A DNA stretch of 63,741 nucleotides, counting the filler. It is 8 parts of 8 records of this genome, joined end to end, with 100 filler letters (N's around TTAATTAATTAA, not from the genome) between each part and the next. Parts side by side here need not be neighbours in the genome. Positions count along the whole stretch, not along the records: positions 24,810 to 34,798 come from DRR723986_14129; 7 more parts are not named here. One strand, given 5' to 3'. The notes below the pieces were generated by a model that was given only the letters and a program-made list of their open reading frames with translations, was not told the DNA's origin and made no database searches. The position numbers and the translations under genes were made by a program. Shown piece after piece: positions 5,186 through 41,041 of the stretch (positions are counted from its first letter, which is position 1; each line of letters starts with the position of its first letter).

Positions 5186-5205
5186 GGAAGGCTCCTGCGA
5201 TAAAC

Positions 5206-14649: not shown

Positions 14650-14755
14650 AAATAGGCGGGCCCTTCGGGCAGTAGTTCCTGGAAATAGGATTGCGACATC
14701 GCGTCGATGACGCCGCGGTTCCTCTCTGGTACAGGCGCGATGCTGATACGTTTTG

Positions 14756-16357
14756 TCATGCGTGGGCCTGCTCGATCTCGGGAAGCACCGGCGCGGCGGC
14801 GATGAGTGATTGGGTATAGGGATGAGCCGGGCGTTCAAATACGTCTTCGGTTTGGCCCTGTTCGACAATTTCGCCGGATTTCATCACCAACACCCGATCC
14901 GTCACGGTGCGGACCACCGACAGATCGTGGGAAATAAACAGATAGGTCAGATCATAAGCGCCGCAGAGGTCAGCCAGCAGATCAAGGATTTGCGCCCGCA
15001 CGGAGACATCCAGGGCGCTGACCGCCTCGTCAAACAAGATCAGTTCGGGCCGGATGATCAGGGCGCGAGCGATAGCGATGCGCTGACGCTGACCGCCGGA
15101 AAACTCATGGATGTATTTGCTGGCGTCTTTGGGGGTCAGTCCCACGGCGGTCAGCGCCTCATCAATTGCACGGGTGCGATCCGCGCCCTGCGGCGGGTCA
15201 GGCAGCAGATGAAAGGGTTCGGTGATCAAACGATCCACGCGGTGCCGTGGATTGAAACTGCCGAATGGATCTTGAAACACCACCTGCATCTGGCGGCGGA
15301 CATCCAGATTGGGTCGCGTGCCGCTGAACACCGGCGCACCGTTCAACGTGATGCTGCCACCCTGTACCTGCTCCAGCCCGAGCAGGGCGCGGGTCAAAGT
15401 GGATTTGCCACACCCCGATTCCCCGACAAGGCCCAGCCGTTCACCACGCTGAATGGTAAAGGACACATCATTCACGGCCCGAAAATGCCCCGGATGCCCA
15501 AACAGGCGGGTACGCGGCAGACGGTAGTCGCGGATCACATTGCGCACCTCAAGCAGCGGCTTTGGCGCCGGCGGTTCGGGCAGCGACACGCGGTGGCCGG
15601 AGGCCTCGAACAACATCTTGGTGTAAGGGTGGCGCATGTTCTGAAGCAATGACTGCGTCTCGCCTTGCTCCACCACTTCGCCATGGCGCATGACGATGAT
15701 CCGGTCAGCCATATCCGCCACCACGGCCAGATCATGGGTGATCATCAGCAGGCCCATGCCGTCTTCTTGGGCCAGCTTTTTCAGCAGCGCCAATATTTGC
15801 GCCTGCGTGGTCACATCCAATGCCGTTGTCGGTTCATCCGCGATCAACAAACGCGGACGCAGGGCGATGGCCATGGCGATCACAACCCGCTGGCGCTGAC
15901 CGCCGCTCAGCTCATGTGGATAGCGTGACAGCGGAAAGCGGTCCTGAGGCAGTCCAACACGGGTCAGGGTTTCAGCGGCGCGGGCCTCTGCCTCTTGTCG
16001 GGACACATCGCGGTGATGAACGCGAATGGTTTCGGCCACCTGTGCGCCGATGGTCTGCACGGGGTTGAGCGCGGTCATCGGTTCCTGAAACACCATGCCG
16101 ATATCGTTGCCGCGAATCTCGCACAATTGTGCCTCGGTCAGTTCTGTCAGGTCTTGATCGCCTAACATGATATGGCCGCTCAGCTCGGTGCCCTTCGGCA
16201 ACAGCTGCATCGTGGCCAGCGCGGTCAGGGATTTGCCAGAACCGCTTTCCCCCGTCACAGCGACAATTTCACCCGGCGCGACGGAGAGGGTCACGTCACG
16301 CAGGATCTTGAGCGCGTGAATGGACAGCGACAGGTTGGTGATTTCAAGCAGGTTCAT
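14756..16357 (-). CDS. Peptide/nickel ABC transporter ATP-binding protein (fused double NBD)
   Basis: Two Walker A motifs ([16 protein letters not shown]), [24 protein letters not shown]. Confidence 0.93.
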
Positions 16358-17169
16358 ACCCGCGCCACCCGCAATCTGGGATCAAGGTAATCGCGCAAAC
16401 CGTCGCCCATCAGATTCAAGCCCAGCACTGTAAGGATGATCGCGAACCCCGGCACCAGCGCCATATGCGGTGCAATGCTGACCAAGGTTTGCGCATCGGC
16501 CAGCATCCGCCCCCAGGATGGCGTTGGCGGTTGCGCGCCAAGGCCAACATAGCTGAGGCCCGCTTCGGCCAGAATGCCCAAGGAGAACTGGATTGTCCCC
16601 TGTACAATAAGCAGATTGGTCACATTCGGGAGGATATGTTCCACAGAGATCCGAGCGGCGGATTTTCCTGCAACCCGCGCCGCCAGAATAAACTCCCGCT
16701 GCCAGAGCGACAGCGCCGCACCGCGGGTGATCCGGGCAAAGACGGGGATGTTAAAGATACCAATCGCAATGATCGCGTTGATCGCGCCTGCGCCAAAGAT
16801 CGCGGTGATCAGAATGGCAATCACAAGGCTGGGAAAAGCAAACACCAGATCATTGCCGCGCATGATCAATTCATCCAGCCAGGTCCCCTGTCGCGCAGCA
16901 GCCCAGAGACCCAGAGGCACACCAAGGCCCATCCCGATGCCAACAGCCACCAGCGCCACCGCAATGGAGGTGCGTGCGCCAACCATGATCATGCTGAGTA
17001 TATCGCGGCCAAAATGATCGGTGCCCAACAGGTGCAGTGCATTGGGCGTCTTCAGCTTGTTGGCGATGTCCAGGGCGGCGTGGTCATAAGGCGTCCAGAC
17101 AAAGCTGATCAATGCGGCGCAGACAAACACCGCAGACAGCACGCCGCCGATGATCAAATTGCGGATCAT
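16354..17169 (-). CDS. Peptide ABC transporter permease (DppC-like)
   Basis: HLLGTDHFGRD, EFILAAR..G, HILPN, PPTPSWG. Confidence 0.92.
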   Translation of the reverse strand: MIRNLIIGGVLSAVFVCAALISFVWTPYDHAALDIANKLKTPNALHLLGTDHFGRDILSMIMVGARTSIAVALVAVGIGMGLGVPLGLWAAARQGTWLDELIMRGNDLVFAFPSLVIAILITAIFGAGAINAIIAIGIFNIPVFARITRGAALSLWQREFILAARVAGKSAARISVEHILPNVTNLLIVQGTIQFSLGILAEAGLSYVGLGAQPPTPSWGRMLADAQTLVSIAPHMALVPGFAIILTVLGLNLMGDGLRDYLDPRLRVARV

Positions 17170-18113
17170 GTGCGCGACCTCAGCCGGGGATCAACGGCGG
17201 CATAGGCCAGATCCACAAGGAAATTGACGGTGATGACAGAGAAGACCAAGAGCATCACCACCGATTCCACCACGATCAGATCGCGGGCAGAAATGGATTG
17301 AAAGACCAATCGGCCAAGGCCCGGAAGGTAAAACACTTGTTCAATGATAATAGATCCGGCCAGCAGGAAGGAAAACTGCAACCCAATGATGGTCAGCACC
17401 GGGATCAACGCATTTCGCAGCCCGTGCCGCCACAAAGCTTGCCGCGCGGTCAGACCCTTCGCCCGCGCGGTGCGCATAAAATCTTCGCCCAGCACATCCA
17501 GAAGGGAGGACCGCATGACGCGGGCCAGAATGGCGGCCTGCGGCAATGCCAGCGCGATGGCGGGCAGGGTCAATGCATGCAAGCCGGCCCAAAGCCCTGA
17601 GTCCCAGCCAATAAAACCACCCGCCGCAAACCAGCGCAGGTTGATCGCAAAGATCAGCACCAGCATCATCGCAAACCAAAAGTTCGGTACCGCCACGCCC
17701 AGTTGTGTCGCGCCCATCACGCCGATGTCGCCCGCTTGTCCCCGGCGGGAGGCGGCGTAAATTCCGGCAGGGAAGGCCAAAGCGGTGCTGAGAACCAAAG
17801 CGTAAAGGGCCAGTGGCAAAGACACCCACAACCGGTCAGAAATCATATCCATCACAGGGGTGCGGTAGGTATAGGAGGTGCCGAAATCACCGCTGAGCAT
17901 GCCGCTCACCCAAGTAAGATAGCGCTGCACCTTGGGAACATCGAGGCCAAGCTCGGCGCGCAAGGCGGCCAGCGTTTCAGGTTGCGCGTTCATTCCCAGC
18001 ATAAAGGAAGCCGGATCACCCGGCGCGATCTCGATCACTGCAAAAATCACAATCGACGCCACAGCAAGGCTGATAAACAGCGAAATCAGGCGTTTGATCG
18101 TATAGCGTAGCAT
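17166..18113 (-). CDS. Peptide ABC transporter permease (DppB-like)
   Basis: PGDPA, GDFGTSY, RTARAKGL, H.LRNALIP, DLAYAAVDPR. Confidence 0.92.
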   Translation of the reverse strand: MLRYTIKRLISLFISLAVASIVIFAVIEIAPGDPASFMLGMNAQPETLAALRAELGLDVPKVQRYLTWVSGMLSGDFGTSYTYRTPVMDMISDRLWVSLPLALYALVLSTALAFPAGIYAASRRGQAGDIGVMGATQLGVAVPNFWFAMMLVLIFAINLRWFAAGGFIGWDSGLWAGLHALTLPAIALALPQAAILARVMRSSLLDVLGEDFMRTARAKGLTARQALWRHGLRNALIPVLTIIGLQFSFLLAGSIIIEQVFYLPGLGRLVFQSISARDLIVVESVVMLLVFSVITVNFLVDLAYAAVDPRLRSRT

Positions 18114-18371
18114 TGCAGGAAGGTTAGGCGCAGGAGCGGGGCGGGTCCAGAGGGGTTTGGCCGCTATGCCGCGACGAAAACGCGGTGAATTGACGCTTTG
18201 TCAGTAGGGTTTGACCGGTCATTCACACAGATGCCATTTTCGTGAAGTGCAAAATAATCGTCTGATAATAATGAGTTGGCGGGACAGGCAATGACCGAAC
18301 CGTTTTCTTTCGGAACCAAAGACCGTGTGTCTGGTTGGTTTGGTGAAGTTAATGAGTTTTGGAGAGTAACA

Positions 18372-18794
18372 ATGAAAACGACTGTAAAAACCCTTGCCAT
18401 TGCCGCCCTTATGGGCACCGTTTCTGCCCCTGCATTTGCAGACGGCCACATGAGCACATCCATGACATGTGCCGAGTGGAAAGATCTGGGCGCTGAGGAC
18501 CGTATGAAAGTGGCACAGATGGCCCTGGCCGAGATCGCAACAGGCGATGACGGCGAAAGCATGGAAGACAGCGCCACTGCAACCGACGACGGTGATGGCG
18601 TGACAGCCGCAGAAGCCACCGACAGCGACAACGGCAATGCGATCGGCGCCGAGGCGACAGCGAACGAATCTTCGCTGACCGCTGATGAAGATACCATTAG
18701 CGATGACGATATGGCGTTGCTTGAGCGGACTTGCGACACCAATCTGGACGCCATGATCTCAGAAGCGGCCATCGGGTCCGCCGGCACACGATAA
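18372..18794 (+). CDS. Secreted acidic protein, HdeA/HdeB-like (MTC.EW motif)
   Basis: RBS GGAG, signal peptide ending AFA, MTCAEW plus a distal Cys, Asp/Glu/Ala-rich middle. Confidence 0.55.
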   Translation: MKTTVKTLAIAALMGTVSAPAFADGHMSTSMTCAEWKDLGAEDRMKVAQMALAEIATGDDGESMEDSATATDDGDGVTAAEATDSDNGNAIGAEATANESSLTADEDTISDDDMALLERTCDTNLDAMISEAAIGSAGTR

Positions 18795-18888
18795 ACCAGT
18801 GGACAGTTGAACGAACTGGGGCATCCGTTTGGGTGCCCCTTTTGCATGCGATGATGGCAAGACCCGGCGCTTGGGTTAAGTAGGACGC

Positions 18889-20004
18889 ATGACCAGCCCC
18901 CATTTCATCGGACATGAAATTTATCGCGGCTCCAGCTATGGTCGGTGGCATCCTTTGCGTGTGCCACGGGTCTCCACGGTGATGGACCTGTCGCGGGCCC
19001 TTGGTTGGTTGCCGAAACGCCAATTTGTCACCTCTCCTCGGGCCAAGCCTGAGGCGTTGGTGAATTGGCACACAGCAGAGTACATCGGCGCGTTGCAGCG
19101 GGTCGAAGCAGATCAGATTGCAACCGCCCAGGATCTTTCCCGTCACGATATTGGCAGCGTGACAAATCCGGTGTTCCCCGAGATTTTTCGCCGCCCGGCC
19201 ACAGCGGCAGGCGGGTCCATTCTGGCAGGTGAACTGCTGCGCGATGGCGGTGTTGTTTATAACCCTGCTGGCGGCACCCATCACGGAATGCCGAACCGCG
19301 CCAACGGGTTTTGCTATCTCAACGATCCGGTGCTTGCGATGCTGAGCCTGCGCCGGTTTGGTGTGCGGCGGATCGCGTTTGTCGATATTGATGCCCACCA
19401 CCCTGACGGGGTCGAAGTTGGCTTTGGCGGTGATCCCGATTGCCTGATGATCTCGGTGCATGAGGCACGGCTTTGGCCGCGCAGCGGGCCGGTGGAAAAC
19501 GATGGCGGCGGCAATGCGCTAAACGTTGCGGTGCCGCGTGGGTTCAATGACAGTGAAATGGCCTTTGTGCGCGATGCGCTGATCCTCCCGCGCGTGCAAG
19601 CCTTTATGCCCGACGCGATTGTGCTGCTGTGCGGGGCAGATGCGGTCGAAGAAGATCCGCTCTCACATCTCCAGCTGAGCAATAACGCTCATTGGGATGT
19701 TCTGCGCCGCCTCATGAACATGGCGCCAAGGCTGCTGGTGCTGGGCGGCGGCGGTTATAACCCGTGGTCCGTTGGGCGTCTGTGGACAGGTGTTTGGGGT
19801 ATTTTAAACGGGCATCATCTGCCCGCAACTATGCCAGAAGAAGCCGAAGCGGTTCTGCGGGCCTTGCGGTTTGACGGCAACCGCCGCGGCAAGAACCCGC
19901 CAGAGCATTGGTTCACCACGTTGCAAGATGCCCCCCGCCAAGGCGCGGTGCGCGACGAGGTCAAAGAGGTCGTGCGTCAGTTGTTGAAGCGACCAGCGCT
20001 TTGA
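18889..20004 (+). CDS. acuC: Acetoin utilization protein AcuC / histone deacetylase family
   Basis: GGTHHG, GFCYLND, DIDAHHPDG, SVHE, GADA...DPL, GGGGY. Confidence 0.88.
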   Translation: MTSPHFIGHEIYRGSSYGRWHPLRVPRVSTVMDLSRALGWLPKRQFVTSPRAKPEALVNWHTAEYIGALQRVEADQIATAQDLSRHDIGSVTNPVFPEIFRRPATAAGGSILAGELLRDGGVVYNPAGGTHHGMPNRANGFCYLNDPVLAMLSLRRFGVRRIAFVDIDAHHPDGVEVGFGGDPDCLMISVHEARLWPRSGPVENDGGGNALNVAVPRGFNDSEMAFVRDALILPRVQAFMPDAIVLLCGADAVEEDPLSHLQLSNNAHWDVLRRLMNMAPRLLVLGGGGYNPWSVGRLWTGVWGILNGHHLPATMPEEAEAVLRALRFDGNRRGKNPPEHWFTTLQDAPRQGAVRDEVKEVVRQLLKRPAL

Positions 20005-20014
20005 TCTGGGGGCA

Positions 20015-21076
20015 TCAGCCCGCCAGTTTGCGCATCAAGGCCTCAATCGGGCCGCGCTTGAACAGCTTCGACCATAGATAGGCGTAAATCGTTGCGCCAA
20101 GGCTGAACAACAATGCGGCGCTAACCGCCTGCGCCGTGGTCTGGCCGCCCAACATCCCCAATGCTTCAAGGGTTCCCATGCCCACCAGAATATGCGCGAT
20201 ATAGAGCGTCAGCGTTTGCCGTCCCGCAGGCACGATCAACGGCAAGATCCGCCATCTGCCCAAAGGCCCGGCCAGCAAAAGGCAAAGACCAATCACCAAA
20301 GACGAAACACCAAACCCTGCCAAAGAATAAAGCGGCATTGGCGGAATAGGTTCGGTTGTGACCAGCAACCCAAACTCAGGGTCAAGCGGCACCAGCACAT
20401 TTGTCAGGCCGATGCTGGTGCCCTCGGCAAACGCAAGTGCGCCGGTGCCAAGGCCGACCAGAGCCATTTGAACCCTGCGTTCTGACAGGGCAAGGCGGCT
20501 GAGAATGATCCCGAACAACAGAAACCCAAGCCAGGGAATAACCGGATGCCAGCCGTTGAAAAACAGGTTCCGAACAAAGCCCGCAGGCGTCCAGAAATCG
20601 GCATATGTAAAGGTCTCCCAGTTCCAGCCAGTGTCATATTCGAATGCAAACACCATCGCGACAAACCCAAGGTTGAGCGCCAGAACGACCCAGACCAATG
20701 CACGCGAGGACAGAGGCAAAAGCATAACGCCGAACAGAAAGTAGAAGGCATAATAATGCAGAATGTCGGCATCAAAGATCAGCATGTTCAACAGGCCGAT
20801 CGCCAATAGAAACACCGCCCGGCGCAGCGACACTGATATGGTCTGATCCAAGGCTTTGCTCCCGGCAAGGCCAAGCCCGATCCCGGCAAGCACAACAAAA
20901 GTCGCCGCCGCCCGCCCCTCCAGGGCGCCGCTCAGCAGGCCAAGCACTCCGCCATCATCATCTGCGCCCATCGCGATCTTGAAATTCACGATGACCATCC
21001 CGACAAAAGCGAGGTATCTGGCAAGGTCCAGTCCAGCCAGTCGGCTTTGCGGGGCGGGGTTTGGGGCGTTTGTCAT
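20015..21076 (-). CDS. DUF418-like membrane protein (acyltransferase-like)
   Basis: RLAGLDLAR.LA..GM, ADILHYY, G..TLTLYIAH, RGPIE..MR. Confidence 0.75.
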   Translation of the reverse strand: MTNAPNPAPQSRLAGLDLARYLAFVGMVIVNFKIAMGADDDGGVLGLLSGALEGRAAATFVVLAGIGLGLAGSKALDQTISVSLRRAVFLLAIGLLNMLIFDADILHYYAFYFLFGVMLLPLSSRALVWVVLALNLGFVAMVFAFEYDTGWNWETFTYADFWTPAGFVRNLFFNGWHPVIPWLGFLLFGIILSRLALSERRVQMALVGLGTGALAFAEGTSIGLTNVLVPLDPEFGLLVTTEPIPPMPLYSLAGFGVSSLVIGLCLLLAGPLGRWRILPLIVPAGRQTLTLYIAHILVGMGTLEALGMLGGQTTAQAVSAALLFSLGATIYAYLWSKLFKRGPIEALMRKLAG

Positions 21077-24709: not shown

Positions 24710-24809
24710 NNNNNNNNNNNNNNNNNNNNNNNNNNNNNNNNNNNNNNNNNNNNTTAATTAATTAANNNNNNNNNNNNNNNNNNNNNNNNNNNNNNNNNNN
24801 NNNNNNNNN
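24710..24809. other. Artificial contig linker
   Basis: N44-TTAATTAATTAA-N44. Confidence 0.98.
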
Positions 24810-24811
24810 AA

Positions 24812-24976
24812 GCGTCTACAAATCTAGGGGCACCTCAGTCTGATGGTAAAGTGAATATCTACTGGCTTGCAGAGAACGCTGGCACGAGCGTTGAGCAGCT
24901 TGAACGCTTCTATTTGAAGAACTTGGCACCAAGCTCTGCGAAGGTCAGGAATATTCAGTCTTTTGGTGATGACTGA
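24812..24976 (+). CDS. C-terminal fragment of a tyrosine recombinase/integrase
   Basis: Hand translation ...DGKVNIYWLAENAGTSVEQLERFYLKNL...NIQSFGDD*. LAxxxGTSxxxxxxxY is box II with the catalytic Tyr. Confidence 0.65.
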   Translation, partial: ASTNLGAPQSDGKVNIYWLAENAGTSVEQLERFYLKNLAPSSAKVRNIQSFGDD

Positions 24977-24984
24977 TTGAGCCT

Positions 24985-25548
24985 TTAGATTTTGGATAGG
25001 TTTCTCGCAAAGCGAAACGCAACTATCAAAGCGTAGAATACGATCATGAGACCGATCACATCGCCAATCATATAGCCCATCACATAAGACAGGATGTCTT
25101 CAGGTTTGCGTAGGAAAGCCAGCGTGCCAGCGTTTACCAGAGAAGACATGGTCCCGGTGATCAGAAAGAACTTCCACTTGCTTTTGGTGAAGCTCGGAGT
25201 GCGCTCACCAATAAGCAGCGTTCCCAACTTGTAACCGATGTAACAAGAGATAATTCCAGCTACGGCAAAGTGCCACCGGAACGGAACTCCTGTCACAGTG
25301 GCTAGAAATGTCATGATTAAGACTCCGGGCAGAAGATACACTAAGCCCTTCCAGCCGAAGAAATAAAACGTGATTATTCGCACGCCGTGTGGAAGATACA
25401 GAAGCCAGATCGTGGCTGGGAAGCTTGGCAGCAGGACTTTCTGAAGGGGGACTGCAAACCCCAAGTTAAGAGAAAACGCTGTGATGTAAGCGGCGGTGAC
25501 GATCAATAGGTGGTTGATGCTCAGTTTGAAGGTTTCTGGCGCCAGCAT
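24985..25548 (-). CDS. Integral membrane protein, MASE1-like
   Basis: 5-6 TM segments, LLYLPHGVRI...FG motif, C-terminal IGDVIG. Confidence 0.55.
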   Translation of the reverse strand: MLAPETFKLSINHLLIVTAAYITAFSLNLGFAVPLQKVLLPSFPATIWLLYLPHGVRIITFYFFGWKGLVYLLPGVLIMTFLATVTGVPFRWHFAVAGIISCYIGYKLGTLLIGERTPSFTKSKWKFFLITGTMSSLVNAGTLAFLRKPEDILSYVMGYMIGDVIGLMIVFYALIVAFRFARNLSKI

Positions 25549-25563
25549 CAGTTAAGCTTCCTT

Positions 25564-25848
25564 TTAGGCAATAGCCACGTAGCGCCCACGTCTACCTGCA
25601 AGCTTCTCAATTTTGCCCGCATCTTCTAGTTGCTTTAATGCACGGAAGAGGGATGGGCGTGAAATATCTTGTGTAAGCTGGTGGCTTTGAATGTCGCTGA
25701 GCTGAGCAACGCTGGAGCTCGAAGCGCAGTCTGCAATCGCCAACAAGACTTGCTTTTCAAAGTGGCTGAGGTCTTCAAGACCTAGCTCTTGCTCCATATC
25801 GGCGAGCAGCATGCTGAGTTGAGCAAGTGGTTGAAGTTTGGCGGTCAT
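25564..25848 (-). CDS. Small winged-helix transcription regulator
   Basis: ISRPSLFRALKQLEDAGKI.K HTH-wing pattern. Confidence 0.7.
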   Translation of the reverse strand: MTAKLQPLAQLSMLLADMEQELGLEDLSHFEKQVLLAIADCASSSSVAQLSDIQSHQLTQDISRPSLFRALKQLEDAGKIEKLAGRRGRYVAIA

Positions 25849-26021
25849 GTAAACGTGTTTCTTTCAAATAGGTTTTGGCTACCGTAGTTGCACGGTATAC
25901 TTCACACTTGGCGCAAAGGCAAAATTTAAATGCCTATATCTTTCAAAGAATTGAATGATAGGCTGAAAGTGTCACGTAGGACCGCGTATTCTTGATCGCT
26001 GTTGTAGAGAAAAAAGGTAAG

Positions 26022-26044
26022 AAAAAGAGCAGCCGAAGCTGCTC
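26022..26044 (-). terminator. Intrinsic terminator of hns
   Basis: Minus strand reads GAGCAGC-TTCG-GCTGCTC-TTTTT just after the stop codon. Confidence 0.75.
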
Positions 26045-26048
26045 CTTT

Positions 26049-26360
26049 TTAGATTGCGAGGTCTTCTAGCGTTTTGCCTGATGCCAGCAGTGCTTCGACC
26101 CACTTTGGTTTGCGACCACGACCGGTCCATGTCTGGCTGGGGTCAGCAGGGTTCGCATACTTTGGTGCAGCTTTGGTTTTGGCTTTTGAAAGCTTTTCGT
26201 CGCCAAGCAGTTCTTTGAGCGAATAACCTGCTGCACGAGCGGCTTCTTCAACAGCTGCCAGAGCTTTAGCTTTTTTGCGTTTTTCATAATTGAAAATCGC
26301 AACAGCCACATCGTCTTGCAGCTTTTTGAGTTCTGCGAGTGTAAGATCGTTTAAGTTCAT
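26049..26360 (-). CDS. hns: H-NS family nucleoid protein (HvrA-like)
   Basis: N-terminal coiled coil and C-terminal PKYANP.DP.QTWTGRGRKPKW DNA-binding motif. Confidence 0.92.
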   Translation of the reverse strand: MNLNDLTLAELKKLQDDVAVAIFNYEKRKKAKALAAVEEAARAAGYSLKELLGDEKLSKAKTKAAPKYANPADPSQTWTGRGRKPKWVEALLASGKTLEDLAI

Positions 26361-26924
26361 TTGTTCACCAACAATTGATATGAGAAAGCACTTAGCGGCA
26401 TCGACAGAACTATGTCAATAAATCAGAGGTTTGAGGGCTTTGTTTCAAACTAGATTTTTGAATGGTTTAAACAGATTTTTCGAGTTTGGGTCAGTGTGCT
26501 GTGTCATGGTTTAATCATGAATTCTGATATGATTGAGTTTCAAAGTGATCCAATTAAGTTGATGAAAGTGATCTCATACTGGTTACTGCTTCGCAGTAAC
26601 TCAACACTTCGTGTTGACGCATTAGATGGTAATGATTCATTGATGGATAAGACTTAAATGTATTTCTTAAACCATAAAGAGATTATACCAATGATTTGAT
26701 ATAATGTCAAGCAAAATCAATAGCTTAATATAAATTTATCCAGTAATAATAATGCCTTAATGATGTTGTGGAAGTGTTTTGAAGACATACTTGCCCAGAT
26801 AGGACAAAGTATGTCTTCGGCTTGTGTCTAGCGCCTCTTAACATAGTCGATCCGCAAACCACGAGATGTGGGAGATAGGGCAACACGATTTTACCTTTAC
26901 AGCGACTTGCTTAAAAAATTACGG

Positions 26925-27131
26925 GGGCATTCGGGCGCTGATCGACTAACGACCCCAAATGCGTGAGACTTGGTTATCTCATCCTTGCGAGTTATTTTTC
27001 TGCCCCCACTCAACTCGGGTGCTTTACACGATGCTGAAGTATCTCATCGTTCCCCCGCCACCAATCGCAGAGAATATTCACATTGGGTCGTCAAACCTTA
27101 TGAGAGCAAAACAAGTATGATCGGGATGCTC
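26925..27131 (+). ncRNA. Candidate structured non-coding element (multibranch fold)
   Basis: Nested long-range pairings enclosing three hairpins, found by eye (see findings). No recognised family. Confidence 0.35.
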
Positions 27132-27273
27132 AGCCCTTATTGGTGTTTGTGCGATGTCTGTCGCTTTCAATGTTATTTATACAAAAGAAGATCTCCGGGT
27201 CGGCTGAAATTGTCAAAAAATCAAGAAATATAAATAATTTACATGAAATCTAACAAACAAAGGAGATCAGTTG

Positions 27274-27486
27274 ATGAACACAGAAGTCGTTCTTGTAAAT
27301 TACCGCATACCAGTTCCATTGAAGAATGAATTTGAGGCTGCTTGCAGGCGACTGCACATGCCGATGACCTCACAGATTAATATCTTGATCCGTGAATTTT
27401 TGGAAAAACAACGCAGCTCGCAACTGCACTGTGAAGATGAATACGAACCGATCAGCTTCTATTCAGCCAGGGGTGACACGCTATGA
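27274..27486 (+). CDS. Ribbon-helix-helix (CopG/ParG-like) DNA-binding protein
   Basis: RBS AAGGAG. VLVNYRIP strand followed by LKNEFEAAC and MTSQINILIREFL helices. Confidence 0.7.
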   Translation: MNTEVVLVNYRIPVPLKNEFEAACRRLHMPMTSQINILIREFLEKQRSSQLHCEDEYEPISFYSARGDTL

Positions 27487-27668
27487 TGCTGGATAATCTA
27501 TACCCTCGCACAAAGCCTGATCTTGTTCGTGCAATCCAGAAGATGCGTATCAACAAGATTGAAGTCATTGATGGATATGTGCCTGCTGACGAGCGTGAGT
27601 TACTCAAAGCAGCTAAAGACATGTCAGCCGGCAATCATGATCTGACCGTCATTTTGGTGAGGTCATGA
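27483..27668 (+). CDS. Hypothetical protein (61 aa)
   Basis: ATGA overlaps with both neighbours, indicating translational coupling. Confidence 0.6.
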   Translation: MMLDNLYPRTKPDLVRAIQKMRINKIEVIDGYVPADERELLKAAKDMSAGNHDLTVILVRS

Positions 27669-27979
27669 AATCGTTTGAAGAGTTTCTGATAGAACATGAG
27701 CAACTTGAAGAAGGCATCATTCGCACTGGAGCGATTGCGTCCTATGGTGCGCAGTCACGAAGAGCAGGTGATGACGCTGCCAGAGCGTTTCAGAGGGGGC
27801 GTCAAGAGCTGCGTAAGTTTATGAGGGACGACAGCGTTGAAGTCAGATTGGAACGAATAGAAACAGCTCTGGAGGCACTCCTCGCCGGTCTTATCAAGCA
27901 GCGACAGCAGATTGGGGCTGGAGTTGCGGTGGATGTTGCTGGGCATACGCTGACTGCGAAGGCGCAAAAGAAGCGCTGA
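27665..27979 (+). CDS. Hypothetical helical protein with N-terminal T4-like capsid-targeting-sequence pattern
   Basis: RBS GAGG, starts MKSFEEFLIE, coupled to the upstream ORF, followed by a terminator. Confidence 0.65.
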   Translation: MKSFEEFLIEHEQLEEGIIRTGAIASYGAQSRRAGDDAARAFQRGRQELRKFMRDDSVEVRLERIETALEALLAGLIKQRQQIGAGVAVDVAGHTLTAKAQKKR

Positions 27980-27989
27980 CTTGATACAA

Positions 27990-28018
27990 AAAAGCACTGT
28001 GTCAATCACAGTGCTTTT
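27990..28018. terminator. Bidirectional intrinsic terminator
   Basis: AAAAGCACTGTG-TCAAT-CACAGTGCTTTT between convergent ORFs. Confidence 0.75.
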
Positions 28019-28025
28019 ACTTCAT

Positions 28026-28370
28026 TTACTGCGGCAAAAATGTTGAGCCTATAGAGTAGCAAAGAAAGCTAAAGTCAACTTCTGCCTCTTTAAAACGTTG
28101 CCGCTCAGTTTCACACGTTTCAGCTGCTTCAATCAGTTCCTGAATCTGATTTGGAGTGGCTCCTGCACGGGTCAATATTTCTGACATTTGCAATGAATCC
28201 CAACCAAAATTGTCTGCTGCTTCATATAAGCAACTTTTGAGACCAGATGCTTTCTCTTTCTTGATTGCCATAGCCCAGCTATCAATAAGATCGTTCATCA
28301 TTTTTTGAAATTGAAATTTATCCGACATTATGTGTCCTTTCGTATGTTTTGGTTTCAAATTTGTCCGCAT
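28026..28370 (-). CDS. Hypothetical protein
   Basis: Open frame ending at the shared terminator. The true start may be the internal MSDKF. Confidence 0.5.
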   Translation of the reverse strand: MRTNLKPKHTKGHIMSDKFQFQKMMNDLIDSWAMAIKKEKASGLKSCLYEAADNFGWDSLQMSEILTRAGATPNQIQELIEAAETCETERQRFKEAEVDFSFLCYSIGSTFLPQ

Positions 28371-28462
28371 CTGAAACGCTCATTCGTTTCGCTCACTGAC
28401 AAGATACTTTTAGCATATGGAAATAACTTGGTAAAAAGCTACAAGGTCGTGTACGATGAGCC

Positions 28463-29071
28463 ATGAGCAACAAAATCTATTTTGAAAATAAAGTCGCTTA
28501 TGACTGGATCCGCTATAAAGACGGCTATTGGATCCCACATAGAAAGCGAGTTTATCTTTATTGGTTCAAATACCTGCAAGAAGCAGAACAGTGCCCTGAA
28601 TTTGCAATTGATTGGTCAAAATATGATGGCTGGGGCGGTGCGAACGAAGTTCTGGGGTCAAAGTTCGATGACTGGTGGAGTAATCACTGGATAGATTTGT
28701 TTGGAACCAAAGATCGTTCGTCTAGCGCTCGCTACCCAATTTCAACAAAGCAACCCAAGACAGAAGCCCTTCGACTGTCTCTGCTGTGTTGGCAAAGACG
28801 TAATGCGCCTGTTTGGGGTAAGCGCGGCAATGCATTATCGATCGCAAAGCAAGTCTATGAATACGAACTCGGCATAAGCGGCGAGAAGAAGGCACGCTTT
28901 GGAGATGATGAGTTCACAGCTGGCAGCATGAACCCCGATACCTTCAAGGTGTATGACAAAGACGACAAAGGTTCTTATGCTGACCCGCAGCGCCTACAAT
29001 CCATCGTCGGTCGCTATCTGCGAAATGCTCGACGGTATCTGAACCATGTTTGCGACGGTAGTTTTCCCTGA
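28463..29071 (+). CDS. Hypothetical Trp/Tyr-rich protein upstream of the recombinase
   Basis: 202-aa ORF with YLYWFKYL...WSKYDGWG...FDDWW and a helix-rich C-terminus. Confidence 0.75.
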   Translation: MSNKIYFENKVAYDWIRYKDGYWIPHRKRVYLYWFKYLQEAEQCPEFAIDWSKYDGWGGANEVLGSKFDDWWSNHWIDLFGTKDRSSSARYPISTKQPKTEALRLSLLCWQRRNAPVWGKRGNALSIAKQVYEYELGISGEKKARFGDDEFTAGSMNPDTFKVYDKDDKGSYADPQRLQSIVGRYLRNARRYLNHVCDGSFP

Positions 29072-29082
29072 CGATGCCAGAA

Positions 29083-29103
29083 GTCATTTCTTGTAAGAAA
29101 TGA
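29083..29103. repeat. Palindromic site A (GTCATTTCTTGTAAGAAATGA)
   Basis: Inverted repeat TCATTTCTT/AAGAAATGA. 20/21 identical to the site at 30322-30342. Confidence 0.75.
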
Positions 29104-29291
29104 GATCCAACAATGTCGCCATGATGATTTTCATTTCTGAAAATTCGAATCGCACTCGTGAGAAAATATGTGTTTCTTCATGAGTCACCGTAACTCATTG
29201 AAAGGTCTCGGTCCTTCGGAAATGGTTGCCATCTCCAGGTTTCCAGTCATGATTTTTCTAGAGAAATCATAGGAAATATAATGGGTTAAGC

Positions 29292-29891
29292 ATGGCTCTC
29301 GGCAAGCAAGCAAAGATTCTCAACAAGAAGCAAATTGATCAGCTTCTTTGGTATGTCGGCACACTTCGGCACTCTGTACGTAATGAAGTCATCGTTCTGT
29401 TGTCGGTGAAGGCTGGTCTTCGTGCAAAAGAGATCGCAGAGCTGACATGGGCTATGGTTACAGATGCCGATGGAGAAGTTGGCTTTCAAATTCATCTGAC
29501 GGACACAGCGTCGAAGGGACGAAGTGGTCGTGTGATCCCAATCAATATGCAGCTCAGGCAAAAACTGATCGAACTGCTGGAGCAGGAATGCCAACATCAC
29601 CTTTTTGATTTGGGGACATCGCATGTGATCCGGACTGAGCGTTCAGAGAAAACTTCACCACAAGCAATCGTGAACATGTTCGCAGCATGGTTTGAAGATA
29701 TGGGGCTAAATGGATGTTCATCACACAGTGGTCGTAGGACGTTCATCACAAATGCGGCTAAGAAGATCAGTTCGGTAGGTGGCTCACTGCGTGATGTTCA
29801 AATGCTTGCTGGGCACTCGTCGCTTGCAGTCACACAGAGGTATATCGAGGGCGATGGCGAAGCGAGGATGAAAGTCATAGAGTTAGTCTAG
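29292..29891 (+). CDS. Tyrosine recombinase (catalytic domain only, 199 aa)
   Basis: GLRAKEI (R), SKG (K), SHSGRR (HxxR), AGH (H), TQRY (Y). Confidence 0.92.
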   Translation: MALGKQAKILNKKQIDQLLWYVGTLRHSVRNEVIVLLSVKAGLRAKEIAELTWAMVTDADGEVGFQIHLTDTASKGRSGRVIPINMQLRQKLIELLEQECQHHLFDLGTSHVIRTERSEKTSPQAIVNMFAAWFEDMGLNGCSSHSGRRTFITNAAKKISSVGGSLRDVQMLAGHSSLAVTQRYIEGDGEARMKVIELV

Positions 29892-29935
29892 GTTAACAGC
29901 CGATGTTGCATCAGATACCTCACAAAGGCGATTTC

Positions 29936-30154
29936 ATGACTGAAGAGGAAAAGCAGGCGATCAGAGCGTCCTTTGCCGGCAAGCGCGTGTCGCAAATGAC
30001 AGAAATCGAACGAAAAGTTTTCGATGAAGACTTTCAATACGGTGTAAGAGCAAAACCAAGTCAGCAACATTCCACGGCTGAGCCAGACCCTAGAAAAGTT
30101 TCGCTGATGTCAGTCTCGCGGATATTCAAGTGCATGGGACTGACTCGAAAATAG
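29936..30154 (+). CDS. Hypothetical protein
   Basis: Short ORF downstream of the recombinase, start MTEEEK. Confidence 0.45.
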   Translation: MTEEEKQAIRASFAGKRVSQMTEIERKVFDEDFQYGVRAKPSQQHSTAEPDPRKVSLMSVSRIFKCMGLTRK

Positions 30155-30321
30155 GCAGATCATTCAGTGCAGACTCGGGTTTTAACCCGTGGCAGGCAAT
30201 CCGAAGATTTGCTGATTGATCAGGACAGGGCAATCGAACGTGCGGTTGATCCATGACTGATACGCATTGTGAGTGTCATTTTGAAATTTTATCGGGGTTT
30301 TCCCTTGACCTGCGAGCATCG

Positions 30322-30342
30322 GTCATTTCTCGTAAGAAATGA
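30322..30342. repeat. Palindromic site B (GTCATTTCTCGTAAGAAATGA)
   Basis: Near-identical copy of site A, just upstream of the RBS of the three-gene operon. Confidence 0.75.
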
Positions 30343-30359
30343 CATGTGTGGAGTGCTTG

Positions 30360-31184
30360 ATGGACACTGAACCTTATCAACTGCCTGGAGACAATGCAGT
30401 CACGATCTCTGATGAGCTAGTCAAAGAAATTCAGCGCCATTTTAAGCGTGATCGAGAAAATCGTTTCAAGCTTTTCCTGTTGAGCCAGGGCATTCGAGAA
30501 AAGTATCTAGACCCTGTAAAAAACGAATACAGCAAAGAGTTTCGTGAGTGGTATGAGCGGTCTGGGGTAGAGCAGCTATTTGGCAAGTTACCTAACTTTA
30601 CACGTTATGCAGCAGCTGGTGAGGTTATCGCCTATGTGTCGACAAAAACGTCAAATCCAAAGAAGTATCTGGCGCAACTTCCGACATCTATGAACGCTCT
30701 GTATGAGATTTCACAGATTGTAAAAGCAGATGCTGAGGCATTCAAAGTTTGTTTGCATTTTACGCCGACACGAAGGGCGCTGTCCGACCCAAAGCATGAA
30801 TGGAAGACAAAAGGGACAGAACCACTTATCCAGCCAGGTGTGACCGCCAAGGAACTCGTAGGTTGGCGGAAGCGCTGGGAAGCCCCCACTCGACAGAAAG
30901 ACGATGACAAGTTTCGGCGAAATGTGAAGTTGCTCACCGTGTCCGTTAGCGAAGACATCTTTGCCTTTGATGCACGTGGCAAGACTGGTGTTGTCGATTT
31001 GGAGCAAGTTCAAGACTTGCTAGCACAGATCCAAGCCCTTTTTTCAAAGTCGAACGAAAAGCAATTCAAACTTGAGACGCAGATTGAGCGCATCACTGAA
31101 AAGTATGAAGCAGAAAAGGAAAAGGCTGACCCTGCCAGTGCCTTAAAGTCACCGAAAAAGAGTAGAGCGGACGACTACAAATGA
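30360..31184 (+). CDS. Hypothetical protein, DUF3102-like
   Basis: Start reassigned to ATG 30360 (GGAG 6 nt upstream). FREWY...FTRYAAAG...LPTSMNALYEISQI...IQPGVTAKEL resembles phage DUF3102 proteins. Confidence 0.6.
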   Translation: MDTEPYQLPGDNAVTISDELVKEIQRHFKRDRENRFKLFLLSQGIREKYLDPVKNEYSKEFREWYERSGVEQLFGKLPNFTRYAAAGEVIAYVSTKTSNPKKYLAQLPTSMNALYEISQIVKADAEAFKVCLHFTPTRRALSDPKHEWKTKGTEPLIQPGVTAKELVGWRKRWEAPTRQKDDDKFRRNVKLLTVSVSEDIFAFDARGKTGVVDLEQVQDLLAQIQALFSKSNEKQFKLETQIERITEKYEAEKEKADPASALKSPKKSRADDYK

Positions 31185-32542
31185 CGCTGGATACACCCAC
31201 CGGGCAAGTTGCTGAAAGCGCCGCATACGACAATCTCGTTGCGGATGTAGAGAACTACCAGAAAGGCTTTCAGCCTCCAAAGCCTGAGAAAGCACCTGAC
31301 TTCCCATTTGAACTCAAGGTTCACATCTGGCGAGCAGGTGAAGCGCAGTTATTTGCCCGAACCATCGGCAAGAAACTCAGCAGCTCCAAAAAGAAATTCG
31401 TCTATCGAGACAGCACCAAAACCAAACCTGAGAATGCGGTCTTTGTCGAAAAGCGTGCCAACCCGATCGTCAAAAAAACCACTCATCTAACCCGTGAAGA
31501 AGCAAAGCACTGGAAAAACACGATTGAGTTTTCTCAAACGGCTTTCGTCCCATACATTACGTTCACATTGATTTTTCAGAACATCGACCAACTTGCTAAG
31601 TTTGCTCGCCGCGTGAAGCAGAAAATCACCCTGAACACTTCATCGATAAGTTTTCCCAAGAAGCGCGAGCGTGTTTGGAAATACAAATGGGTCTCTGAGT
31701 GGGATGACTGCAATCCCAAGTATCCCGTCTACATCGTATCTAAAGGGCGTGCTGACTCTCGTCTCACTGCGAACACATTTGAACGCTGTAATATCCCCTA
31801 TTTTGTCGCCATAGAACCGCAGGATTACGATGATTACGCCTGCGTCATCGATGAAAAGAAGTTACTTGTTCTGCCTTTTTCTAACCATGGCGATGGTCCC
31901 GGACGTGCAAGAAATTGGTGCTGGGATCACTCAATGAGTTTGGGTTTCAAGCGCCATTGGGTCTGCGATGATAACATCGACGGCTTCATGCGCCTCCACA
32001 ATGGCAGGAGACACCCCGTTGGGGATGGTGGACTATTTCGCGTCATCGAAGAGTTCGTCGACCGCTACAAGAATGTGCCGATAGCGGGACCACAGTATCG
32101 TTTCCATGCTCTTGAAACCGAAAGCTACCCGCCGTTCGTGCTGAACACGCGTATCTACTCGTGCTTGCTGATTGAAAACTCATGCAAGCATCGCTGGCGC
32201 GGTCGATACAACGAAGACACCATTTTGAGCCTTGATGTCTTGAAAGATGGCGACTGCACCATGCTGTTCAACTGCTTGCTTCAAAACAAAATTGTCACTC
32301 AAGCACTGAAGGGTGGCAACACCGACGAGTTCTACGACGCAGAAGGCACTTACAACAAATCGAGAATGCTAGAGGTAGTTCATCCCGATGTGTCGAGAGT
32401 AGTCTGGAAGTTCAATCGTTGGCACCACGAAGTGAACTACAAGCCATTTAAGGCGAATGCCCCTCAGTTTGTTGATGGATACGATCCAACAAAATGCAGA
32501 ACCGAAACAGACCGATATAGTGTGGTGCGAGTGAAAACCTGA
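31181..32542 (+). CDS. GREB1-like / TET-associated (TAGT) glycosyltransferase with N-terminal duplicated accessory domain
   Basis: PKYPVYIVSKGR, ARNWCWDHS, HWVCDDNI, NTRIYSCLLI, WRGRYNEDTILSLDVLKDG, KGGNT, RWHHEV. Confidence 0.8.
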   Translation: MTLDTPTGQVAESAAYDNLVADVENYQKGFQPPKPEKAPDFPFELKVHIWRAGEAQLFARTIGKKLSSSKKKFVYRDSTKTKPENAVFVEKRANPIVKKTTHLTREEAKHWKNTIEFSQTAFVPYITFTLIFQNIDQLAKFARRVKQKITLNTSSISFPKKRERVWKYKWVSEWDDCNPKYPVYIVSKGRADSRLTANTFERCNIPYFVAIEPQDYDDYACVIDEKKLLVLPFSNHGDGPGRARNWCWDHSMSLGFKRHWVCDDNIDGFMRLHNGRRHPVGDGGLFRVIEEFVDRYKNVPIAGPQYRFHALETESYPPFVLNTRIYSCLLIENSCKHRWRGRYNEDTILSLDVLKDGDCTMLFNCLLQNKIVTQALKGGNTDEFYDAEGTYNKSRMLEVVHPDVSRVVWKFNRWHHEVNYKPFKANAPQFVDGYDPTKCRTETDRYSVVRVKT

Positions 32543-32569
32543 GCCATCTGATGCGGAGAGTGATGCCCT

Positions 32570-33097
32570 ATGAAAAAGACCCGCGATTTTAAAGTTTCCA
32601 AGGACAAACCCAAAGTAAGGTACGCTGGGGAGAAGGGTAGTGCGCAGAATGCACTTCGTTATGAACTTTATAGTTATGCTCATGACCGCCTAGAAGAAGC
32701 CTGCGAGCAGGGCATGCTATTCGAGGTCATTGCCATCTGTGACATGCTCATCACAGATCGAATGGAAGCCTATTGTCAGTTTCTGCTCCACGATGATGAT
32801 TTGCAGTTTGAGACCATGAGCATTGCACAAGCATTGGCGGCGCTTGGGACTGCAATTGCGGACAAAATACCGCCAGAGAATAAGCCCTCAGAGTGGAAAT
32901 CACTCCAAAGGCGTCTGGAGAAGTTTGCAGAAGCCAGGAATTTCGCCTTGCATTCGTTTGTTTTGATAAAAAACGCAGCGCCTTCCAGCAGCCTCGAAGA
33001 GCGTATAGCCTTCGTGGAGGATGCAGCAGAAGATGGCGTTAGATTAGTCAGCGAAATCAGCGCGTTTGTGAGCAAGCATATGAAGTTTGACGATTAA
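32570..33097 (+). CDS. Putative HEPN-domain protein
   Basis: All-helical. E..AICDMLITDR N-terminal helix and an RNFALH (Rx4H) motif at about 32936-32953. Confidence 0.6.
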   Translation: MKKTRDFKVSKDKPKVRYAGEKGSAQNALRYELYSYAHDRLEEACEQGMLFEVIAICDMLITDRMEAYCQFLLHDDDLQFETMSIAQALAALGTAIADKIPPENKPSEWKSLQRRLEKFAEARNFALHSFVLIKNAAPSSSLEERIAFVEDAAEDGVRLVSEISAFVSKHMKFDD

Positions 33098-33334
33098 TGA
33101 TCGCCCGTTGAAACGCGCTGAGCCCCTTTTTGTTGCAAGGTGTTCAGGACTGTCGTGGCTTTGGGTTGCTCCAAAGAGACTTGGTCACCCTAAAGCAATC
33201 CCATGCCTCTTATGGGCTTTTGAAAAAGCTACGGATACTGTTTATCTTTTTGAGACTGCTTTGCGCTTGGTGCAAACGCGCTGCAAATTTTAATGCGCCG
33301 ATAGACGTCAACACTGTTTCAATTGGAGAAGATC

Positions 33335-34798
33335 ATGGCGACGGTAAACGTGAATGGATCGTATGCTGCGGTTGAAGGTGACGATACTTTAGTTATCACA
33401 AATAGCCAGTGGGTCCATTTGGACTACGGGGTCAATGTTGGAGCCCAGGGTGTTATTGCTAACCTGACTAACACTTCGCTATATGACGGTGTTACGCCAT
33501 TGACACCCCTTAATGAGGTTGATGCTACTAATGCGTCTATTTTGGCTTCTCCATGGACGATAATAGACCAATTTGGCACCATTGACACGCTTCAAGGCTT
33601 TGTAGCTGGTGGCATTTGGGGCACCCCTTATGATGACATTGTTGTGGCTGATGCTATTTTCGATTTCAACCCAAATGGCGGTAACGATCAGCTCTACATA
33701 GCAGGCGATGCTTATGCATCGCTTTCAGCGCCCTACGGTGCCCGTATGGTGATTTTCAATATATCTGAAAATAATTATACTTATTTTTACCCAGACGGTT
33801 CTCAAGGCTCGGTTTCAGTATCCGGACCAGGCACACTTACTGCTTTGGTCGGTGCTGCGCCAAATGGCAACGGTCAAGTAATTAACTCCCTGACAGGCTC
33901 CACAGGTAATGACCGCTTCGCATCATTAGGTGCCACCGATTTAATCTGGACTGCGGGAGGCGCAGATGAGATTGCAATTTGGGAACCCGGTGGTGAGGTT
34001 TCTATACAAGATGAATTTTCAAGCGATGATTTCTTCTCATTTATAGTCGATGGAAGGTTTGGCTTTGATACAAATGATTGGCTTTCCAATTTTGAGGTTA
34101 CATATAATGGTTTCGATAGAACGGTAATTAGGACAACTTCGGCAAATGTTCCTGTCACTGACCTAGTCGTCCTTGGAGAGTATTCTTTGGACTCCCTGTT
34201 TATAGACGAAAGCATTCCAGGACAAGTTCGCCTTTACCTGAACCCGGACGTGCCTCAAATTACACTCGATGCTTATAGCTCGCCCAAGTATGATGAATAC
34301 AGCTTCAAATACTTCCAGACAGATTTTAACAATGCTGGTCTGAATTTTGATACAACCAACATGCTGGTAACTTCATCTACTGGATTTCAGTATGATTTAT
34401 CTGATTATCTAACGAACGGTCGCTTTCTCGCGCTTGGGCTTACCACCGGAGACGACATTATTACTAAAGATCAATCTGTTTATCTTGATGTCTTCTACTT
34501 TGGAGGTCACGATGTAATCAATAGCTCTGTGCATTCAATAGATACAAGCGTATCGGTGGACGGAAACGGTATTGCACGCTGGGCTGGCTATCAAAACGGT
34601 GAAAGCTTATATTTCTCGGGTGGACCAGGCTATACAGGAAACGCGACTGTAAACATTGATGCAAATAACAATCTCAACATCAATATTTTTGACGACACTG
34701 GCACAACCGGCACTATTACCGGCAAGAACATTGAACGGATCAACATCAGCGGAATTGGTGACCATACTGTTGTTGGCAACGACTTTGAACACATGTTC
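33335..34798 (+). CDS. Large acidic secreted/surface protein with degenerate RTX-like repeats (3' truncated)
   Basis: GTPYDDIV, GGNDQL, GSTGNDRF, GGADEI, GGHDVI, NIERINI..GD..V.GND. Rich in G/D/N/T/S. Confidence 0.65.
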
Positions 34799-34898
34799 NN
34801 NNNNNNNNNNNNNNNNNNNNNNNNNNNNNNNNNNNNNNNNNNTTAATTAATTAANNNNNNNNNNNNNNNNNNNNNNNNNNNNNNNNNNNNNNNNNNNN
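34799..34898. other. Artificial contig linker
   Basis: N44-TTAATTAATTAA-N44. Confidence 0.98.
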
Positions 34899-40941: not shown

Positions 40942-41041
40942 NNNNNNNNNNNNNNNNNNNNNNNNNNNNNNNNNNNNNNNNNNNNTTAATTAATTAANNN
41001 NNNNNNNNNNNNNNNNNNNNNNNNNNNNNNNNNNNNNNNNN
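40942..41041. other. Artificial contig linker
   Basis: N44-TTAATTAATTAA-N44. Confidence 0.98.

Follow-up and report, generated by a model that had tools for sequence, protein, structure and literature searches.

A TAGT-family glycosyltransferase gene and its partner gene as a candidate phage-derived cassette in variable low-GC integrative islands

The window, a 63,741-nt stretch of DNA made up of eight contigs, contains on one of them (24810-34798; 9,989 nt, cut at both ends) three co-oriented genes that a preliminary description had presented as one new system. Comparison with related loci of genomes and metagenomes led to another reading. Genes 1 and 2 are best read as a self-contained, translationally coupled two-gene cassette, and gene 3, together with a small tyrosine recombinase, as conserved backbone of an integrative island in which genes 1 and 2 are cargo of the slot between the two. 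Taken as a whole, a phage-derived, DNA-glycosylating cassette that sits in a defence hotspot of the island beside an independent backbone HEPN gene has, in our estimation, about an even chance of being the correct description. The three genes are:

30339/30360-31184, plus strand: gene 1, open reading frame (ORF) for 274 aa; the homologues start at the Met at 30360
31181-32542, plus strand: gene 2, 453 aa, glycosyltransferase of the TAGT family (GT-A fold)
32570-33097, plus strand: gene 3, 175 aa, HEPN-fold protein with an Rx4H motif

The gene arrangement was found as described: three co-oriented ORFs downstream of a tyrosine recombinase gene, the stop codon of gene 1 overlapping the start codon of gene 2 in the ATGA at 31181-31184, and a spacer of 27 nt (32543-32569) between gene 2 and gene 3. 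A terminator-like site was not found on the plus strand between genes 1 and 3, and promoter-like sites across the three genes showed no excess over shuffled sequences. The junction of genes 2 and 3 was spanned by contigs of four of four public metagenome runs from four studies, the junction of recombinase and gene 1 by contigs of two of the same four runs. Because these independent contigs span the junctions, the arrangement is real and not an assembly chimera. The contig had further been described as an AT-richer island. The low GC content was evident, with values per kb of 0.40-0.49 on this contig versus 0.51-0.73 on the other contigs of the window; the presumed island, however, is an entire contig of its own, truncated on either side. 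The joins of the window are pairs of 44-N runs (7123-7222, 14550-14649, 24710-24809, 34799-34898, 40942-41041, 48924-49023 and 57083-57182). Genes on either side of a join are not physically linked, and the GC content differs strongly between the contigs.

With gene 2 as query, a scan that covered each prokaryote species by one genome yielded 11 loci; a metagenome scan with the gene 3 alignment yielded 14. All loci were then searched by tblastn and profiles. Gene 1 was located directly upstream of gene 2 in all four loci holding either gene (window, L001, L002, L018), with a 4-nt overlap in the window and in L001, an 8-nt overlap in L018 and a 21-nt gap in L002. The position of gene 3 varied:

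window: gene 3 adjoins genes 1 and 2, co-oriented
L001: gene 3 lies 2.5 kb downstream of genes 1 and 2, past a C5 DNA methylase gene (1.9e-71) and a convergent 345-aa gene
L018: genes 1 and 2 are inverted, on the opposite strand and on the other side of the recombinase from gene 3
L002: genes 1 and 2 are followed by a transposase ORF; gene 3 is lacking

Thus, gene 3 is adjacent to and co-oriented with genes 1 and 2 only in the window, and the proposed three-gene system was not supported. The 345-aa gene of L001 is read as a PD-(D/E)xK nuclease that would form a type II restriction-modification (R-M) pair with the C5 methylase, and the ORF after gene 2 in L002 reads, in translation, as an IS256-like transposase. 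Nine loci were informative for the comparison from the side of gene 3, each having 800 nt or more upstream of it. The gene immediately before gene 3 is gene 2 in one of these, the window, so the triplet failed the conservation test here as well; it is the recombinase in three (L012, L015 and L018, with a gap of ~55-60 nt). Gene 3 occurs without genes 1 and 2 in L012, L013, L014, L015, L021 and L022, the copies in L021 and L022 being more distant (51 % identity) and having other small genes upstream. Since gene 3 occurs without gene 2, a role of the transferase as antitoxin of the HEPN protein, one of the options offered before, is excluded as an obligate relation. One further candidate, L025, was dropped as gene 3 locus; its identity was 34 % over 44 residues and the profile search missed it.

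The coupling of genes 1 and 2 extends to a fusion: the protein P0104 (572 aa) combines a short TAGT domain (2.2e-8) and, in the same frame, a full gene 1 homologue. A free copy of this TAGT type is the second, short TAGT gene of L001 (2782-3630, minus strand, 282 aa, PF20691 1.6e-9), located left of the recombinase. Six gene 1/gene 2 pairs of database clusters have a longest contig of the same size, versus one gene 2/gene 3 pair, which is indirect support for the linkage of genes 1 and 2. Near the TAGT genes of viruses gene 1 was found in none of 80 viral loci searched by tblastn and profile, and it was likewise missing in the other TAGT loci examined, nine genomic and two from phages. Viral contigs yielded nothing in single-sequence scans with genes 1 and 3 or in a profile scan with gene 1, and the phage and plasmid collections had no match to either gene. 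A complex prediction for the products of genes 2 and 1 scored 0.26 versus a mark of 0.34; it gave no answer and was not used either way.

On its sequence, gene 2 is firmly assigned to the TAGT glycosyltransferases, in agreement with the preliminary description. It matched PF20691 with 123.3 bits (cut-off 27.5, E 1.6e-35; residues 181-373, profile positions 1-200 of 205) and phrog_842 with an E-value of 4.5e-46. All seven motifs quoted previously (SKGR, ARNW, DDN, RIYSC, RGRYNED, GGNT and RWHH) were present in the translation and fell on invariant columns of an alignment of 24 sequences with a mean column identity of 79 %. D263-D264-N265 may be the equivalent of the catalytic DxD. According to PMC13216743, the TAGT family has a GT-A fold, the member in phage T6 adds a second glucose to glucosyl-5-hydroxymethylcytosine (hmC) in DNA, and a solitary TAGT, with neither an alpha- nor a beta-glycosyltransferase (GT), occurs in 288 of 753 phage genomes.

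With the TAGT enzymes of phages, for example the T6 beta-glucosyl-HMC-alpha-glucosyltransferase and the T6-type homologues of T4-like Aeromonas phages, gene 2 shares the Pfam family and the PHROG. Its identity to homologues from 25 phage records (Aeromonas, Vibrio, Tenacibaculum and others) is 35-50 %, the 45-50 % identity to isolated phages covering 62-72 % of gene 2, and the catalytic half of gene 2 is 50-64 % identical to TAGTs on IMG/VR viral contigs; at least 568 IMG/VR stretches encode such relatives, of which 80 were taken for analysis. Gene 2 differs from the phage enzymes in its location on a bacterial integrative island, in its dedicated upstream partner and in the lack of an alpha- or beta-GT, a TET/JBP or a hydroxymethylase beside it. 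A further difference is an additional N-terminal part of ~108 residues. Residues 1-108 are confined to TAGT proteins of 445-454 aa (24 clusters) and a few viral relatives that align with gene 2 from residue 4, and residues ~110-180 are also common to the phage homologues. A protein-atlas search with residues 1-175 reached a best score of 0.78, under the lead level, and sequence profile searches of the PDB brought no useful match for genes 1, 2 or 3. A quick maximum-likelihood tree was computed for the catalytic half of the TAGTs; in it, gene 2 of the window, L001, L002 and L018 and 21 database proteins, the latter picked by N-terminal similarity and not by adjacency to gene 1, formed one side of a branch with a support of 99 in the SH-like approximate likelihood ratio test (SH-aLRT), beside 82 viral rows. 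Gene 2 is best read as captured from phages, and in these comparisons it represents a clade new to an otherwise known enzyme family, with a setting and a partner that are new as well. A pair of TAGT-like genes was also observed in tandem in the Vibrio phage Kuja (Ackermannviridae; L027, 5899-8587; 452 and 446 aa), the first of which aligns with gene 2 from residue 66 of gene 2.

Gene 1 represents an unnamed family. None of 52 close homologues has a Pfam domain, the family profile matches 164 representative clusters, and the mean column identity across 29 sequences is 46 %. The earlier designation as DUF3102-like was given up: none of the 29 family members matched PF11300 (DUF3102) at E<=1, and one protein-atlas cluster (rank 22, score 0.93), with PF11300 in 13 % of its members, is the sole lead to that family. 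The only match in PADLOC-DB 2.0 was PDC-M33A at 0.013. In an AlphaFold2 model with a predicted local distance difference test (pLDDT) of 84, the N-terminal domain is helical and the C-terminal part coiled. At Z>=5, the structure search brought up only chains of the Raf1 N-domain (Z 5.0-7.4) and two chains of KorB. The DNA-binding domain of KorB (1r71_A) aligned as a whole, over 114 of 114 residues, with a Z of 5.6 and a root-mean-square deviation of 3.9, a weak match that ranks behind the Raf1 N-domain at 7.4; the second KorB chain (8qa8_A) reached 5.4 and the related SopB 3.9. A sequence match to KorB was lacking, and Foldseek retrieved no PDB match for the model at E<=0.001, all E-values being above 1. 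If the weak likeness to KorB/ParB-type domains is a guide, gene 1 may be a DNA-binding or targeting subunit. In one branch of the family (P0140, P0163, P0170-P0172, P0184-P0186 and P0194; 414-468 aa) the C-terminal domain is a different, conserved one without Pfam match; the N-terminal domain is therefore a reusable module.

The HEPN assignment of gene 3 was upheld. Its 27 homologues share an R-N-x-x-L-H motif, with R123, N124, L127 and H128 invariant in the alignment of 28 sequences. The AlphaFold2 model (pLDDT 83, predicted template modelling score 0.82) was compared with 48,161 chains, and the top matches were mostly HEPN domains with a Z of 8-9.8, although values under about 13 are common among helical bundles. 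Among the matches listed, six were titled HEPN: 2hsb_A (9.7), 1wol_A (8.3), 3o10_A (8.0), 4nqf_B (7.3), 8xdj_A (6.9) and 9bj5_A (6.2). By protein name, the best matches include AF_0298 (9.7), ST0689 (8.3), the sacsin HEPN domain (8.0), an AMPylated HEPN toxin and AbiV. Further matches were Csm6 (three rows), HepS, AbiA, Roquin and SO_3166, which presumably all contain HEPN domains. Curated HEPN families did not recognise the sequence (no Pfam match at E<=0.1, none in PADLOC or PHROG), Foldseek found nothing in the PDB at E<=0.001, and the PDB sequences yielded a single, unrelated match at 0.0099. Since predicted fold and invariant motif occur together, the HEPN call is reasonable. The model aligned with single-gene and toxin-type HEPN proteins (HepT of MntA-HepT, AbiV, HepS and the C-terminal domain of AbiA) at a Z of 6.2-8.5, and the Rx4-6H motif is present. 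Gene 3 is distinguished from these proteins by the missing Pfam HEPN match, by a conserved basic N-terminal extension of 24 residues and by its neighbours: no nucleotidyltransferase, the partner in MNT-HEPN pairs, matched in any scanned neighbour, the genes upstream of gene 3 being gene 2, the recombinase or other cargo, and its constant neighbour is the small tyrosine recombinase. No system model of PADLOC-DB 2.0 fits any of the three genes. In the more distant relatives L020 (691-3778), L021 and L024, two large genes of 563 and ~470 aa without Pfam or PADLOC match come after gene 3 in every case. In the window, a large ORF of more than 490 aa (33323-34798), rich in G/D/T/N repeats and without Pfam or PADLOC match, follows gene 3 and runs off the contig.

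Upstream of the three genes, the contig carries the following features:

24810-24980, plus strand: 3' end of a large tyrosine integrase gene, cut by the contig end
26049-26360, minus strand: H-NS-like nucleoid protein (PF00816 Histone_HNS, 5.7e-19)
27271-27979, plus strand: three small backbone genes (71, 61 and 104 aa) without Pfam match
29083-29104, no strand assigned: palindromic 22-mer, copy 1, upstream of the small recombinase
29292-29891, plus strand: small tyrosine recombinase, 199 aa (PF00589, 9e-21, residues 9-186)
30322-30343, no strand assigned: palindromic 22-mer, copy 2, immediately upstream of gene 1

The three small genes, the small recombinase and gene 3 are common to the window contig, L001, L013 and L018. 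By tblastn, the three small genes are 47-82 % identical and in the same order in L001, L013 and L018. The small recombinase, which has no N-terminal SAM-like domain, is 74-86 % identical in L001, L012, L013, L015 and L018. A large integrase is present in L001 and L018, and its 3' end also opens the window contig: positions 24837-24980 are 88 % DNA-identical to 1198-1341 of L001, the end of an integrase-like ORF (402 aa, 129-1337) that was assigned without a Pfam scan of that ORF; the corresponding L018 protein of 476 aa matches PF00589 (1.4e-10). The two copies of the palindromic 22-mer flank the recombinase and differ by two mismatches, and a related palindrome with five mismatches lies upstream of gene 1 in L001 (4448-4469). 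The 22-mer could be a recombination site or an operator. Two more related palindromes, in L013 behind the recombinase (1889-1910) and in L002 in the region from gene 1 to gene 2 (2088-2109), have six mismatches each, a level at which one or two matches are expected by chance.

The genes beside the recombinase and gene 3 differ from locus to locus:

L001, slot: genes 1 and 2, C5 methylase and the convergent 345-aa gene
L013, slot from recombinase to gene 3 (1932-5657): SAM (S-adenosylmethionine) methyltransferase of 255 aa, a 322-aa protein and a 669-aa fusion of PP-loop and C5 DNA methylase
L014, upstream of gene 3: McrB-like AAA protein, McrC and N6/N4 methylase
L012, L015 and L018, slot: empty, the recombinase being followed by gene 3
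L018, after gene 3: BREX (BrxL, 3.2e-129)

In L013, the 669-aa fusion combines an Asn_synthase PP-loop ATPase (3.5e-8) with the C5 DNA methylase (1.4e-40), and the cargo looks like a cytosine-C5 hypermodification module. Its 322-aa protein was considered as a relative of gene 1 and rejected at an hhalign probability of 0.3. In L018, the genes of a type 1 BREX system (11265-20504) are convergent with gene 3; BrxL was confirmed, and the ORFs of PglZ and PglX size were assigned by size and order only. The metagenome variants part from the window at ~29173, left of the recombinase, and at 29856, the 3' end of the recombinase, which agrees with variable slots on either side of it. A step in GC content, from segments of 41-50 % to flanks of 52-65 %, was evident in L018 and L014: in L018 a segment of 41-48 % adjoins a flank of 52-56 %, and in L014 gene 3 is the last low-GC gene before host genes of 56-65 %. 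As judged from these sequences, the loci belong to one family of integrative islands of low GC content, best read as residing in marine bacteria, in which the cargo varies in at least two slots, to the left and to the right of the small recombinase. A tRNA was found neither in the window nor in five related loci, the window contig and L001 had no exact terminal overlap, and a megablast search of the whole contig against plasmids gave no match. In defence hotspots of mobile elements, variable cargo lies between conserved backbone genes. The islands are alike in that backbone genes flank slots with R-M, McrBC, BREX and modification modules, and differ in that this recombinase/HEPN family has no match in the plasmid or phage collections. 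L020, a more distant relative that has its own integrase and small recombinase and a gene 3 copy of 51 % identity, carries an exact 51-nt direct repeat at 1-51 and 9954-10004, 9,953 nt apart. Compared with L021 and L022, its genes come in a circularly permuted order. One explanation for the repeat would be a circular form of the element of ~9.95 kb, another an overlap in the assembly graph.

On the gene identities, the unity of the cassette and the variability of the slot as observed above, we infer a substrate, a role in defence and a role of gene 1. Gene 2, helped by gene 1, would take a sugar from a nucleotide-sugar donor and attach it to the 5-hydroxymethyl-pyrimidines of DNA. The preliminary description had noted that the contig lacks a TET/JBP, a methylase and a hydroxymethylase, and indeed no TET/JBP, DNA methylase or hydroxymethylase model matched among its scanned ORFs. 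Families that make hydroxymethyl-bases had no match among the scanned neighbours in the window contig, L001, L013, L014 and L018, which are short or cut contigs. As no scanned island gene matches such a family, the likely substrate would be the hmC- or 5-hydroxymethyluracil (hmU)-containing DNA of an infecting phage. The mis-glycosylation may block the phage's own further modification, its replication or its transcription; alternatively, the added sugar may mark the phage DNA for modification-dependent nucleases. For gene 3 we envisage an independent action, most likely that of an abortive-infection RNase triggered by phages. We tentatively suggest that genes 1 and 2 form a new anti-phage defence, a possibility rather than a probability, in which a captured hypermodification enzyme glycosylates phage 5-hydroxymethyl-pyrimidines, with gene 1 as the DNA-targeting subunit, and either blocks the phage or marks its DNA for nucleases of the McrBC or BrxU type that share these islands. 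For glucosyl-hmU, PMC4111573 reports a moderate block of replication in one system. A precedent is provided by BapA, which together with Brig3 edits a base modification of phages in defence (10.64898/2026.02.25.707755); hosts do use base-editing accessory enzymes in defence. Brig3, a DNA glycosylase, and BapA, a hydrolase that removes the glucose from phage glucosylated 5hmC, share with the cassette the concept of a host that edits phage base modification. The likeness is one of concept alone, in that BapA removes a sugar and works with a glycosylase effector, whereas gene 2 would add a sugar and has no identified effector.

Several points weigh against this reading. GTs acting on hydroxymethyl-bases are normally protective of phage DNA, and that such an enzyme should harm the phage is therefore not obvious. 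The absence of a hydroxymethylating gene was read in the window from a 10-kb contig that is cut at both ends, and the TAGT family also includes, according to PMC7968844, the protein O-GlcNAc transferase GREB1. The likeness of gene 1 to KorB is weak (Z 5.6), and helical folds reach a middling Z by chance. The defence hotspot is drawn from five or six loci, mostly short metagenome contigs. Finally, the distance from genes 1 and 2 to gene 3 is no more than 3 kb in three of the four loci with the pair; with this co-occurrence on the same island family and with nothing that separates the genes transcriptionally in the window, a loose functional tie of genes 1 and 2 with gene 3 stays conceivable.

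The best surviving alternative, which we regard as unlikely, is that the cassette serves the island itself as counter-defence or self-modification: gene 2 would, for example, glycosylate island DNA replicated from the hydroxymethyl-dNTP pool of an infecting or helper phage, a satellite-like mimicry by which the island escapes modification-dependent restriction in the next host. The closest relatives of gene 2 are phage enzymes with a known DNA-protecting role, the element has integrases and a small recombinase, repeat and circular permutation in L020 are compatible with an excised circle, and L001 holds its second, short TAGT gene. A helper phage with hydroxymethyl-bases would, however, normally bring its own transferase, and no capsid, terminase, primase or other satellite hallmark was present among the scanned genes of the loci read. 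The other cargos of the slots are defence systems of host type (R-M, McrBC, BREX), and none of the phage and viral loci examined contains gene 1.

Slightly less likely still is a protein or another non-DNA acceptor for gene 2, with gene 1 as its substrate or adaptor. The model for such a reaction is GREB1, whose TAGT-type domain O-GlcNAcylates ERalpha (PMC7968844). In line with it, a source of hydroxymethylated DNA is not encoded nearby, and gene 1 is tightly coupled to TAGT enzymes, once by fusion to a TAGT domain. But the substrate class is usually kept at the level of identity, 50-64 %, that the catalytic half of gene 2 shares with viral TAGTs. Moreover, DNA-binding domains (KorB) are among the structures that gene 1 matches at Z>=5, and the neighbouring cargos all act on DNA.

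One system of three genes, in which genes 1 and 2, by glycosylation or by sensing, would control the HEPN RNase of gene 3 in abortive infection or as toxin-antitoxin, is improbable and largely refuted by the comparison of loci. The window itself favours it, with adjacent and co-oriented genes, a gene 2-gene 3 junction recovered in every metagenome run and the lack of a terminator-like site; the proximity of gene 3 in three of four loci and the one gene 2/gene 3 cluster pair with a same-sized longest contig point the same way. It is contradicted by the R-M pair between genes 2 and 3 in L001, by L018, where genes 1 and 2 are found past the recombinase and on the other strand, and by L002, where an IS256-like transposase ORF (an unscanned reading) and no gene 3 follows gene 2; gene 3 is alone in six loci and has gene 2 directly upstream in one of nine. 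That genes 1 and 2 are a decaying, functionless remnant of a prophage hypermodification cluster would suit the phage ancestry of gene 2 and the missing cognate hydroxymethylase, but is very improbable given two intact genes, their conservation at 79 % (24 sequences of gene 2, with invariant motifs of catalytic type) and 46 % (29 sequences of gene 1) mean column identity, the coupling of the pair in four different contexts and the absence of other phage genes around it.

The reading of genes 1 and 2 as a phage-derived, DNA-glycosylating cassette beside an independent HEPN gene bears on the TAGT family as well as on the islands. Literature searches turned up no host-encoded TAGT module; DNA glycosyltransferases of TAGT type are known as counter-defence enzymes of phages. 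A TAGT clade captured by a bacterial island, tied to a non-phage partner and placed in a slot used by R-M, McrBC and BREX systems would be the mirror image of this known role. If the cassette acts on phage DNA, the modification of an invader's modified bases would join the immune strategies of bacteria, beside BapA, and a new enzyme for tagging hmC and hmU would be at hand. The loci also illustrate that a tidy operon of three genes can consist of cargo and backbone, and they define a hotspot, flanked by the small recombinase and the HEPN gene, that could be mined for further systems.

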